Shown one piece after another: positions 12,312 through 53,826 of a DNA stretch of 64,000 nucleotides (its first letter is position 1; the number at the start of each line of letters is the position of its first letter). The position numbers and the translations under genes were made by a program. Under the pieces are notes generated by a model that was not told the DNA's origin, ran no database searches, and saw nothing but the letters and a program-made list of their open reading frames with translations. This DNA comes from a virus. The stretch lies in IMG/VR virus record IMGVR_UViG_3300006916_000041, positions 1 through 64,000 of that record; one strand, written 5' to 3'.

Positions 12312-12497
12312 ATGCTAGTAAAATGTATAGACGGAACAGTTCAAATTAATTTGGTATTCAAAGATACCAAGAGATGGCAAATTCAAATGCTTACTGCAGG
12401 CACAGATTTTACTATCACTGACAACATGCAGGCTGAGTTTGAACCTGTTACAGAAAAAACTACAATTATTTTAGAAAAAGATACAGAAAAAGGTTGA
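12312..12497 (+). CDS. Hypothetical protein
   Basis: ORF with GAAGG SD. Confidence 0.5.
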   Translation: MLVKCIDGTVQINLVFKDTKRWQIQMLTAGTDFTITDNMQAEFEPVTEKTTIILEKDTEKG

Positions 12498-50669: not shown

Positions 50670-50921
50670 ATGTCACAAGAAGAAGGCGTTCATGTTACAT
50701 TAGATGATCTAACTCCACAACAGGTACAAATGCTGAATAAGATTTGGAGTTATGACAGGGCTGAAGATTTACAAGCATTTAGAGACAGCCTGCCTCGATT
50801 CCGTCAACAGGAACTTGATACACTTGTTATAATGATAATAATGGAAATGGAAGGAGTCAAGGCTGAAGAAGATGTAAGCATGGCTCAAGAGATGTTGCGT
50901 GATCTTGGATACTCATGTTAG
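50670..50921 (+). CDS. Hypothetical protein
   Basis: AGGAG SD. Confidence 0.6.
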   Translation: MSQEEGVHVTLDDLTPQQVQMLNKIWSYDRAEDLQAFRDSLPRFRQQELDTLVIMIIMEMEGVKAEEDVSMAQEMLRDLGYSC

Positions 50922-51202
50922 ACGATAATGCAGCTAAAATATTTGCTGAAAACATAAACATGATGGTGCCATGGTATCTCATGGCATCGTATGCGTACTA
51001 CAAAAAAGATGAACCTATACTCAGCGATGCGTTCTTTGACGCTATGGGCAAAACTATGTTGGAGAGATGGGATGACATTGATCATTTTCACAAGCACTTT
51101 ATTACTGTTGATGACTTACAAGCCGGAACCTATCTTGGCGACTATCCCAGTCGTGTCGAAGGTGCCCTTAAAGACCTTGTTGATAAACACAAAAAAGGTT
51201 GA
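50915..51202 (+). CDS. Stand-alone NAD+-ligase domain Ia-like protein
   Basis: YAYYKKDEPILSDAFFD matches the YY..D.P..SD..YD motif of LigA domain Ia. Confidence 0.7.
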   Translation: MLDDNAAKIFAENINMMVPWYLMASYAYYKKDEPILSDAFFDAMGKTMLERWDDIDHFHKHFITVDDLQAGTYLGDYPSRVEGALKDLVDKHKKG

Positions 51203-51227
51203 CATCTAATAAAAAATATGCTATGTA
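51199..51227 (+). promoter_or_regulatory. Sigma70-like promoter for the 51.3-53.5 kb operon
   Basis: TTGACA, 17-nt spacer, (TGC)TATGTA. Confidence 0.55.
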
Positions 51228-51309
51228 ATTAATGTAAGCAATAACGTTTACGAAAACTAGGACGAGTAGGTCCGATATAGGCTGGAAGCCGCAACACAAG
51301 GAAAAGTAA

Positions 51310-52449
51310 ATGGAACTATCATACGCAACCCGTGTGAACAAAGAATATGAAACTAGTGCATCTAACTTTGTCACACTACAAGAACGATTAAACGAAGCAC
51401 TAGAAAAGGCACCATTTTTCGCTGCACAGCTAGATCAAATGGTATCCGAATTTAAACGCAAAAATTCAAAATGGAAAAAGTTTAGCGATTTACAACTGTG
51501 TAAAGCACAGATGACTGCGCTGGACAAAATCATTATTGATGCTAGTATGCAACGACAGCCTAATATGCGTCACATACTAGAAATTTTACAAAATTTCCGA
51601 GAAACAATGGTCATGGCTATCCAAGTTTATGTAAATGAGGATGGAAATTATGTGGCTTGGGATGGCCAGCACACTGCGCTAGCACTTTATATTTTAGCCA
51701 CTAAAGTATTTGGTGATCGCTTAAAGGCATGTGAAATACCAATTGTTGTGTACTGCACAAGTCAAAAACTTGAAATTCGTCGTAACTTTATTTTGTTGAA
51801 TGGCGATGCAAAACAACCACTAGACTTTATCGACACATACAAGCAAATGGTTTATGGTGTTAAAGTTGATGGTGCAACAGACCAAGAATGGGTAGACACT
51901 GCAAAGAAAAATGACTACTTCCGTGACGCAGACTTGTTTGCTACTAACAGCAAGTTTGGTGACGACGACGAAACAGGTGCATTTACATTGCTTGCAGATA
52001 CTACAATGAGCAAGAGCCTGAAAACACGTAAAAATCCAGAAGTAACTCGTATGTTTGCAGACTACTGGACTCGCTTAAATGCAAAACGTCCAGTTGATGC
52101 TAAAGAAGCAAGGCAGTTGTTTGAGTACTTTAACTTGTGCTATGAACAAGGAATTACAGTAGACGACGATTATGTAAAAGAGTTTGTAGAGTTTACCAAA
52201 GACTTCTTTGAAGCAGACTTTTCGCCTAACGGAATGTTTTGGGATAAAGTTAAAATGGCATACGAAAGCTGGTATGCAAAAGCTAACCCAGAAAGCTACA
52301 ACGATTGGGGTGTACGGGGGTTTACTACAGAGATGCGTACAGGGCTTCCGTTCTTGATTGCACAATTACGCAAAAGTACAAATCTTAAAACTCCTAATTA
52401 CACACCAAACAATGGCTTCACAGTTTCTAAAGAGGACTTGTGGGACTAA
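51310..52449 (+). CDS. ParB/Srx-superfamily (DGQH-type) protein
   Basis: ID..MQR, WDGQHT..AL, F..LN....PL...D. Confidence 0.7.
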   Translation: MELSYATRVNKEYETSASNFVTLQERLNEALEKAPFFAAQLDQMVSEFKRKNSKWKKFSDLQLCKAQMTALDKIIIDASMQRQPNMRHILEILQNFRETMVMAIQVYVNEDGNYVAWDGQHTALALYILATKVFGDRLKACEIPIVVYCTSQKLEIRRNFILLNGDAKQPLDFIDTYKQMVYGVKVDGATDQEWVDTAKKNDYFRDADLFATNSKFGDDDETGAFTLLADTTMSKSLKTRKNPEVTRMFADYWTRLNAKRPVDAKEARQLFEYFNLCYEQGITVDDDYVKEFVEFTKDFFEADFSPNGMFWDKVKMAYESWYAKANPESYNDWGVRGFTTEMRTGLPFLIAQLRKSTNLKTPNYTPNNGFTVSKEDLWD

Positions 52450-52898
52450 TGGCTAAATTGTTAGACAAAAACAACCGTAAGATGAAAAGTCCGGGAATAC
52501 TACGTGAGCAATATCGACGTGGTGCTAAGTGTATGCTTGAAGATTGTGATAATGATTTGAGTATATTCGATGGACCCGGCGGAAACATTTTATGTGAAGA
52601 GCATCAACTGGAATGTGTAGAATACGGTGGCATGGGTAAACCAGAACGTCCACACACTTTCTACAGAGGTTGGGAATGTAACACTTGTGGTTATGATCCA
52701 CGTGAAGATCCTGAGATCATTTCAATTGAGGATCCATATCATCAACTGCGTGTAGCACGTGGTGTAATGCATGGAGACCATATTCACTTGAAAAGTCAGG
52801 GTGGAGCAGACACAGCAGAAAACATCAATACACTGTGCTGTCGTTGTCACATGATCAAAAGCTACAAAGAAAAAGATTATCTAGGAACAAGACAATGA
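52449..52898 (+). CDS. Zn-binding HNH endonuclease-like protein
   Basis: CxxC, DHIH.KSQGG.D..ENI.TLC.RCH..K. Confidence 0.8.
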   Translation: MAKLLDKNNRKMKSPGILREQYRRGAKCMLEDCDNDLSIFDGPGGNILCEEHQLECVEYGGMGKPERPHTFYRGWECNTCGYDPREDPEIISIEDPYHQLRVARGVMHGDHIHLKSQGGADTAENINTLCCRCHMIKSYKEKDYLGTRQ

Positions 52899-53545
52899 AA
52901 ATAACACGAGTAAAAGGAATCGAAGTTGGTGATAGTTTGCCAAGTTGGATAAATTCTGATACATCACCAACTGTTATCGGAAATTACTTTCATGACAAAC
53001 TTGGTCAATTTCAAGGAGGTTATAACACAGGCAAAGGGTCTGACTTTCCTCTACTAGAACTTGAATTGAAAACCAAAAGCCAATACAAGTTGTCCAGAAA
53101 CAAAATTGTAAAAAACAATACAGATTGGACTGTTGGAACTATAACACTATCAGACTTGCTGAATCAAAGTTGGTCACAAACACACTTGTCTAAAAAAATG
53201 AAAGTTTGGTTGACTGTGGTTTATGACAAACATTATCTGAACACAGTTAAATCCAAAAATATTGTAGATTTTAGGCATTCTAGTGTACAACAAAAATTAG
53301 AACATGCCTATAATTTTGCACAACAACACATGTTATCAACTGTACAGCAAAGTCTACAAACAGGTATTGCATTAGAAAAACTGTTTAAGCCTGGAGGGTA
53401 TGACAGAATAGGATATGGCATTGTGTTTGAACGCAAAGGTGCAGAAGATATTGAAACCTTTAGTATGAGAATAACACAGAGTCATTTGCCAAAGTTGGAA
53501 AAACTTAGCAATAGTGTACAACATGCATTTTTGGAATGGAGTTGA
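52895..53545 (+). CDS. MutH/Sau3AI-like PD-(D/E)xK nuclease
   Basis: G......LG....DFP.L.LELKT; W..T.L.KK. Confidence 0.6.
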   Translation: MKITRVKGIEVGDSLPSWINSDTSPTVIGNYFHDKLGQFQGGYNTGKGSDFPLLELELKTKSQYKLSRNKIVKNNTDWTVGTITLSDLLNQSWSQTHLSKKMKVWLTVVYDKHYLNTVKSKNIVDFRHSSVQQKLEHAYNFAQQHMLSTVQQSLQTGIALEKLFKPGGYDRIGYGIVFERKGAEDIETFSMRITQSHLPKLEKLSNSVQHAFLEWS

Positions 53546-53595
53546 ATAAAAAAGGAGGCTGATTTCCTGGAGGTTTTCAGCCTGCTGAACTTACA

Positions 53596-53826
53596 TTACT
53601 TGCGGTTCCAAATACCCCAAAGTACCCAGATCGCAATCAAGCCCATTAGGCCTTCAGCACCCAGTGTTGCTAGCATACCGCTAACATTTGCGACTACACT
53701 AACTTCAGGGAAGAATGGGATTGCACCAAGACCTAGTACTTCTACTACGATCATAAGTGCCGCAATACTAATGCCAACTTCAGCAAGAGCACCTGCCCAA
53801 CCTTTTACTTTGTTGATAATTTCCAT
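53596..53826 (-). CDS. Small 2-TM protein
   Basis: AAGGAG SD; hydrophobic; late motif upstream. Confidence 0.7.
   Translation of the reverse strand: MEIINKVKGWAGALAEVGISIAALMIVVEVLGLGAIPFFPEVSVVANVSGMLATLGAEGLMGLIAIWVLWGIWNRK

Follow-up and report, generated by a model that had tools for sequence, protein, structure and literature searches.

The first 64 kb of the viral record IMGVR_UViG_3300006916_000041, hereafter called the window, belong to a 172-kb contig (G000; 172,409 bp, estimated to be 48% complete) and contain a small operon of three genes on the plus strand. Gene A (51310–52449) encodes a protein of 379 amino acids (aa), gene B (52449–52898) one of 149 aa and gene C (52895–53545) one of 216 aa. 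The original prediction, made from the bare sequence, had described three translationally coupled open reading frames (ORFs) for a ParB/Srx-type DGQH protein, an HNH nuclease and a MutH/Sau3AI-like nuclease, and our analysis agrees with it on both counts. The ATG of B overlaps the TAA of A (TAATG), the ATG of C overlaps the TGA of B (ATGA), and AGGA Shine-Dalgarno-like motifs lie 5' of all three starts. The C start at 52895, rather than an upstream GTG, is backed by the 216-aa gene call of a 96% identical protein on another contig. Profiles and predicted structures support the three folds, and the motifs that had been read by eye are all present (MQR and WDGQHT in A, DHIH..SQGG..N..LCCRCH in B, DFPLLELELKT in C). 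Each gene is single-copy within the 172 kb. A and B form a pair of early genes that is strongly conserved in a clade of uncultured aquatic jumbo phages. We rate the operon as a virus-side, split module of a ParB-fold protein and an HNH nuclease with an optional MutH-like partner, confined to this clade.

A conserved ParB-fold and HNH gene pair with a facultative third gene

In the predicted structure of A (predicted local distance difference test, pLDDT, 82), residues 65–166 form a ParB/Srx domain and residues 187–379 are helical. The ParB/Srx domain best matches KorB-CTP (8qa8; Z 6.9, root-mean-square deviation 2.7 over 91 residues), followed by serine kinase, PadC, Srx (sulfiredoxin) and SbnI, while BrxU (GmrSD) and SspE score lower. 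Eight of the nine best structural chains are of the ParB/Srx type, as are all the top Foldseek matches. The helical C-domain gave no clear structural match and contains no nuclease motif. Proteins of 350–400 aa that are structurally similar to A occur in uncultured phages and in T4-like cyanophages.

DGQHR domains are recognized by a QR motif, a nearly invariant DGQHR and an FxxxN motif (PMC4619093). In an alignment of 30 homologues of A, Q81-R82 is invariant, and so are F160 and N164 (FxxxN) within EIRRNFILLNGD. The central motif, D118-G-Q-H-T122, carries Thr in place of Arg in all 30 sequences, one of which reads EGQHT. Among the profiles, A matches TIGR03187 (DGQHR) with E 7.8e-5 and 22.5 bits (cut-off 58.85), and weakly phrog_1033 (ParB-like, E 5e-5) and the Pfam family DUF6551 (E 0.11); there is no PF14072 or DUF262 match in Pfam at E up to 1, and no PF02195 match. 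Two of three motifs and the fold thus make A DGQHR-like, yet its score stays below the family cut-off. The whole of A is under strong purifying selection.

B matches the Pfam family HNH (PF01844) with 35.1 bits against a cut-off of 21.4. Across 14 relatives, the catalytic residues D110-H111, N125 and H134 are invariant, as are the zinc ligands C77xxC80 and C130/C133, an N-terminal Cys/His cluster (C28, C33, C49, H52, C56) and a YGGMGKPxRPxTFYR block. Judged by its sequence, B is a bona fide member of the PF01844 zinc HNH family with its active-site residues intact. The closest relative of its HNH core among cultured phages is the mycobacteriophage genome-end HNH (38% identity over residues 70–141). 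Longer proteins in which a B-like domain is fused to other parts were not found, which is weak evidence.

We examined the neighborhood of A in 23 related metagenomic phage loci with sequence downstream of this gene. A homologue of B directly follows A on the same strand, with a stop/start overlap or in near-contact, in all 23 (identity to the window 57–97% for A and 48–92% for B), and no neighbor other than B is constant beside A. In a further sample of seven contigs (L026–L032), A, B and C occur in this order in four (L026, L029, L030 and L031); L027 holds the 3' end of a B homologue alone, and L028 and L032 contain no match to A or B. Since B always directly follows A on the same strand, in the 23 loci as well as in L026 and L029–L031, A and B form a fixed pair. 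We therefore reject the idea of B as a solitary homing endonuclease, which had been named as the finding that would speak against a module. A predicted complex of A and B scored 0.08 against a mark of 0.32 and was used neither for nor against this pairing. In one lineage, a 461-aa superfamily 2 helicase (ResIII/DEAD, Helicase_C; L009:8306–9691) is encoded two genes after the HNH gene.

Hundreds of metagenomic jumbo-phage contigs carry the pair, which has no characterized member and is absent from cellular genomes. Metagenomes contain at least 465 homologues of A with 57–97% identity, some of them on contigs of 306–334 kb. The A profile retrieved no relative from 185,579 prokaryote species genomes. 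In 50,697 GenBank phage records, neither the region nor A or C had a match (blastn, tblastn), and a short ParB-domain query retrieved generic ParB-like proteins alone (E at least 0.2). PDB sequences searched with the A and C profiles gave nothing meaningful. The PADLOC library, described as covering known defence systems, had been proposed as a check of novelty, and it holds no match for A or C at E up to 1. A–B, which is about as conserved as the clamp loader, is no sporadic accessory island; the two genes are a strongly conserved early pair across the whole jumbo-phage clade.

C matches the Pfam family MutH (PF02976) with 28.2 bits against a cut-off of 23. Its structural model (pLDDT 89.7) has the MutH-DNA complex 2aoq as best Foldseek match (E 1.6e-5, probability 1.00, template modelling score 0.61) and Sau3AI (4pxg, E 2.6e-3) as second. 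D50, E57 and K59 (D-x6-E-x-K) do not vary among 22 family members and are spaced exactly like the catalytic residues D70, E77 and K79 of MutH. By these sequence features, C is a bona fide PF02976 MutH family member with intact catalytic residues. The family is rare, with 38 matches in 1.84 billion representative proteins.

The three genes had been expected to be conserved as a trio, and here the original prediction does not hold. C is missing from every one of the 23 loci, both by tblastn and by a hidden Markov model of its family, even where A is 97% identical, and only A and B are constant. The slot after B is not a constant third component either; it is filled by unrelated genes, mostly of unknown function, that differ between lineages. 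C-like genes near A–B nevertheless recur in at least four other lineages, plus once after a distant A-like gene. We looked at the contexts of eight C family members, four of which lie in the A–B phage clade. One C homologue (96% identical) has the identical A–B–C layout, two C-like genes directly follow A–B pairs whose A is 68–74% and whose C is only 30–34% identical, and the fourth is encoded on a 313-kb contig, 4.85 kb downstream of B. Together with the one after the distant A-like gene, an A-like gene is present in five of the eight contexts; the remaining three are other or uninformative.

The C-like genes near A–B are 30–39% identical to each other, and C diverges far faster than A: on two contigs with 91% identical A proteins, the C proteins share only 39%. 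A separate promoter (TTGACA-16-TATAAT) precedes the C-like gene of L029; in the window, C is joined to the operon by its start/stop overlap. Because it is absent from the 23 loci, recurrent elsewhere and divergent, we regard C as an optional, rapidly evolving second nuclease that the module has repeatedly kept or captured. The slot after A–B thus repeatedly recruits a second, restriction-type nuclease.

The C-like gene that follows a distant A-like gene is part of a divergent three-gene unit (L033:4335–6564). The first gene of this unit has a TTGACA promoter of its own and encodes the distant A-like protein (403 aa); genes for a 138-aa protein and the MutH-like protein follow. The distant A-like protein carries FQR..WDGNHT (hhalign probability 87%, E 3.6e-6). 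By eye, the 138-aa gene had looked like a GIY-YIG/T5orf172 nuclease, but this idea was dropped as it has no Pfam match. A 323-aa protein related to the distant A-like protein is encoded by Sinorhizobium phage Phosso, coupled to a 268-aa protein, and matches DUF6551 weakly.

Promoter, leader hairpins and flanking genes

The operon is preceded by an early sigma-70-type promoter at 51199–51227 on the plus strand (TTGACA at 51199–51204, a 17-nucleotide spacer and an extended -10 TGcTATGTA at 51219–51227). Its -35 and extended -10 (TGnTATA) are kept upstream of A in most related loci, and it has the AAAAAGGTTGACA..TGCTAT..ATGTAAG frame that is common to the repeated early promoters of the window. 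The promoter that had been proposed at 51199 is hence readable in the sequence, conserved in most relatives and a member of an early-promoter family. It was not listed by a simple promoter scan because its -10 hexamer ends in A. The A–B promoter lacks the AAGACGTCTT palindrome of its siblings, and its leader is unusually long (~80 nucleotides). The sibling cassettes, of ~55 bp each, are located at 12494, 13267, 50131, 54530, 55050, 55820 and 57433 of the window. They have the organization AAAAAGGTTGACA-(AAGACGTCTT palindrome)-TGCTATATT-ATATGTAAGT and head short gene cassettes; by blast, relatives carry related copies at several places.

Two small hairpins had been predicted in the leader. The first one, at 51260–51273 on the plus strand (GGAC-GAGTAG-GTCC, loop consensus RAGUAK), is conserved with compensatory changes: relatives have the stems GGAC/GTCC, GGGC/GCCC, GGTC/GACC, GACC/GGTC or GGCC/GGCC and keep a RAGUAK-like loop. 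In an alignment that ignored structure, it scores 0.354 for covariation, compared with 0.199 in shuffles, and 1 of 500 shuffles reaches 0.354. As a genome-wide motif the RAGUAK hairpin was rejected, with 3 matches in 172 kb against 2.4 expected; only one of the 3 lies in a leader, namely that of A. We tentatively read this hairpin as an operon-specific RNA element that may serve autoregulation. A hairpin with the same loop as the one in the A leader (GAGC-GAGTAT-GCTC, L030:1853–1866) lies just 5' of the ribosome-binding site of the MutH-like gene in L030.

The second predicted hairpin (GGCT-GGA-AGCC, 51280–51290, plus strand) is present, but it is lineage-specific and occurs in the window and its closest relative L004 alone. 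We noticed a third one, which the original prediction does not mention, in the 5'-proximal part of the leader (51234–51251, plus strand; GTAAGC-AATAAC-GTTTAC). It is present in the centroid fold, and relatives have other stems at this position (GAGC/GCTC in L006, GGTC/GACC in L008 and L011, GGGC/GCCC in L022). Folding of the whole leader is no better than that of shuffles (z = -1.5).

Downstream, the predicted convergent gene is present at 53596–53826 on the minus strand. It encodes a hydrophobic 76-aa protein, probably a small membrane protein, that is 90% identical in L022 and is located downstream of A–B there, too. The hairpin between the convergent genes (53553–53586, -16.7 kcal/mol, z = -2.1), with a T-run on the minus and an A-run on the plus strand, is probably a terminator shared by both units. 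Upstream, a 95-aa ORF (50915–51202) matches phrog_19233 and weakly the N-terminal part of nicotinamide adenine dinucleotide (NAD)-dependent DNA ligase (E 4e-4 to 6e-4). This gene, which resembles NAD-ligase domain Ia, had been pointed out as an NAD-binding-domain gene beside the operon. The adjacency exists in the window, but it is not a conserved link, because the gene lies upstream of A in the window and L007 and downstream of A–B in L004 and L006.

Genes for a probable guanine modification and avoided palindromes

The contig encodes a 524-aa TGT/DpdA-like protein at 88461–90036 (L025:2462–4036), 37 kb from A. It displays the TGT-like motifs DSGGFQ, MILD, LQGE, MGG and FDCASP, and its gene is located just after polB and a clamp-like gene, with FolE, a cytidylyltransferase and oxidoreductases encoded just downstream. 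The protein has no sequence match in Pfam (including the TGT model), PHROG, NCBIfam or PDB, and its identification rests on the motifs and on synteny with the cultured jumbo phage PA5oct. There, EST35_0316 is 29% identical to it and is encoded between polB and QueE; the order polB, clamp-like gene, TGT-like gene is the same in both phages. PA5oct DNA is reported to resist several restriction enzymes, which is consistent with modified G (PMC12191111). In addition to FolE, the contig encodes QueD and a partial QueC-like match, and the TGT-like gene is present in three of five related fragmentary records that carry A–B. Genes for FolE, QueD and a TGT/DpdA-like enzyme make it probable that a 7-deazaguanine derivative takes the place of some guanines in this phage.

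We found no DNA methyltransferase of the Dam, N4/N6 or C5 type in the 172 kb. Avoidance of GATC, considered as a sign of self-targeting, was not seen: the genome has 603 GATC sites, with an observed/expected ratio of 1.04. GAATTC and GATATC are likewise at expectation. Other palindromes are strongly avoided in the 172,409 bp, namely AGCGCT (0 observed, 10 expected), CTTAAG (1 and 13.6), AAGCTT (4 and 31.5), GTGCAC (7 and 46), CTGCAG (12 and 46), CGCG (21 and 106) and GGCC (86 and 178). Depletion is milder for palindromes that have G in a GA context than for the others (median 0.94 vs 0.74, p = 0.03), a post hoc comparison that gives a hint only.

Possible role and known counterparts

We tentatively favor the reading that A–B, with C where present, is a split, nucleoside triphosphate (NTP)-gated nuclease of the GmrSD/SspE kind that this aquatic jumbo-phage clade directs against unmodified DNA of the host or of rivals. 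A would bind and hydrolyse NTP and would clamp onto DNA or move along it, like ParB, KorB, SspE and DpdB. It would control the translationally coupled zinc-HNH nuclease B, the two proteins together doing in split form what GmrSD/SspE-type or ParB-HNH fusion enzymes do, and C may have been added as a second effector in the window strain and a few other lineages. Since the phage probably carries a 7-deazaguanine derivative, the most plausible target in the early phase of infection would be DNA without this mark, be it the host chromosome or that of co-infecting elements. Early expression, the probable guanine modification, the unavoided GATC and the lack of a detected methyltransferase all suggest such a target. 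The phage's own DNA, including the 603 GATC sites, would be spared, and how much nuclease is made is probably governed by the operon-specific hairpin in the leader. We infer the NTPase activity, a physical contact of A with B (and C), the DNA that is targeted, the self-protection through modified bases and also the originally suggested role in restriction or exclusion.

Several points weigh against this reading. The invariant Thr of A takes the place of the Arg of DGQ(H/Q)R, a motif that SspE needs for its NTPase activity. Besides falling under the TIGR03187 cut-off, A has no DUF262, DndB, DpdB or PADLOC match. B is a classical PF01844 HNH and not of the DUF1524 type found in GmrD and SspE; the likeness of A–B to GmrSD/SspE is therefore one of analogy and not of nuclease homology. 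Modification of the phage DNA is itself something we infer, and any protection is not global, because several G-containing palindromes are strongly avoided. Finally, the very high conservation and universal presence of A–B in the clade are unusual for conflict genes and agree just as well with housekeeping in phage DNA metabolism.

A different role for A would be that of a phage counterpart of DpdB that powers the TGT/DpdA-like enzyme, with B (and C) nicking or opening the DNA for access or removing unmodified DNA. DpdB is a ParB-fold ATPase that DpdA needs for the insertion of preQ0 into DNA; it has a ParB-fold N-domain (DGQQR) and a helical C-domain without nuclease motif and forms a homodimer of 80–95 kDa (PMC10164549). 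A is predicted to have the same two-domain layout, and it is of the same size. The genome carries the DpdA-like gene and a deazaguanine precursor pathway (FolE, QueD), the TGT-like gene accompanies A–B in three of the five related records, and early expression suits a modification function. However, A is not beside the dpdA-like gene (~88.4–90.0 kb) and is always coupled to an HNH gene instead. By profile search, PA5oct has no A-like protein in spite of its TGT-like gene and QueE, although an empty answer is weak evidence. The PADLOC search gave no match at E up to 1, the presence of a DpdB model in that library being unchecked. The known phage DpdA systems are not reported to need DpdB. We consider this explanation unlikely.

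An elaboration of our preferred reading, in which the host or rival DNA is the target, would be a kind of reverse restriction. A, as a ParB-like NTP-gated clamp, would license the latent nickase B and, in some lineages, the MutH-like GATC nickase C; the phage would be marked as self by a 7-deazaguanine-type base, the DNA of host and rivals would be shredded early, and the RAGUAK hairpin would control the dosing. The licensing of B and C by A would parallel that of MutH by MutL. In this specific form, the scheme appears improbable to us.

It is also conceivable that A–B is a housekeeping pair that nicks or cuts specific sites to serve replication initiation, recombination, the resolution of concatemers or packaging, with A as the DNA-site or clamp subunit. 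The core-like conservation, the universal presence in the clade and the location in a replication-gene region near the clamp loader argue for it, and so does the kinship of the B core with the mycobacteriophage genome-end HNH, since HNH proteins of this class assist terminase. That similarity is confined to the generic HNH core, though, and A–B is not beside terminase or structural genes. The pair is expressed from an early host-type promoter, and the optional, fast-evolving, restriction-type C fits conflict better. On balance, a housekeeping function seems unlikely.

The pair does show cassette behavior. The A–B DNA is 91% identical to that of L004 from the -10 box to 11 nucleotides before the B stop, while the nearby clamp loader is only 70% identical; the identity breaks at the -10 box. 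The similarity ranking of A across phages disagrees with those of the clamp loader and the TGT-like gene, and the position of A–B relative to its neighbors shifts between relatives, although a loose synteny is kept. In L004, A–B ends with a terminator that is followed by another early promoter. PeSL (promoter-early stem-loop) cassettes are known to shuffle genes in T4-type phages (PMC2839356). Like these, the window has a repeated early promoter and stem-loops before small gene cassettes in a plastic region, with recombination breakpoints between -10 box and ATG; the phage group and the repeat sequence differ, and the A–B promoter, in contrast to its siblings, has no palindrome in the spacer and is followed by a long leader that contains hairpins of its own. 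The mosaicism, the own promoter and the PeSL-like terminator arrangement in L004 could also mean that A–B is a mobile and selfish cassette, in which a homing-type nuclease and its helper pass between related phages whether or not these benefit, but this is highly improbable, as there is one copy in every related locus and it is never absent, loose synteny and purifying selection over A are maintained where homing endonuclease genes are typically sporadic and decaying, and cassette exchange via the promoter repeats accounts for the mosaicism without selfishness.

Among known systems, the module would work most like GmrSD and SspE, by analogy, yet it fails membership. In both, a DGQQR ParB-fold NTPase is coupled to a His-Me nuclease (PMC4619093, PMC10164549), and GmrS and GmrD can be separate genes (PMC4619093). 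A–B shares with GmrSD, BrxU and SspE a ParB/Srx domain with QR, DGQxx and FxxxN motifs and a His-Me-finger nuclease. It differs in that A has DGQHT instead of DGQQR and no DUF262 or PADLOC match, while B is a separate zinc-finger HNH of PF01844 without the DUF1524-type (E/D)HxxP and N..N motifs. Moreover, A–B resides as a conserved early pair in a lytic-type jumbo phage and not in a bacterial defence island. To DndB, a regulator with a DGQHR domain, A is linked by the weak TIGR03187 match under the family cut-off; it differs from both DndB and DpdB in being without relatives in the prokaryote species genomes scanned.

ParB-HNH fusions occur in bacteria, and phage ParB-folds of the DUF6551 family bind CTP or ATP (bioRxiv 10.1101/2025.10.10.680097). 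A resembles these proteins in its ParB fold, its weak DUF6551 match and its pairing with an HNH, but A and B are two genes, and A has no PF02195 match. C and MutH share their fold over the whole of C as well as an identical D-x6-E-x-K spacing, and the Pfam MutH score of C is above the cut-off. In contrast to MutH, to which it is 13–15% identical, it belongs to a small phage-only family of ~190–230 aa, and it is far under the equivalog cut-off of Sau3AI (15.7 vs 300 bits). No MutL/MutS partner or methyltransferase was found for C, which sets it apart from MutH and Sau3AI alike.

If the module is a modification-aware nuclease, phages with modified guanine would be using their mark offensively, against the DNA of hosts or rivals, and a clamp-licensed nuclease would be added to the ParB-CTPase repertoire. 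The small size of the three proteins and the defined leader hairpin make these ideas directly testable in vitro. The combination of a ParB/Srx NTPase with a nuclease is a logic known from bacterial defence (GmrSD, BrxU, SspE), and such NTPases also act in DNA modification (DpdB, DndB); here, it appears on the side of the virus.

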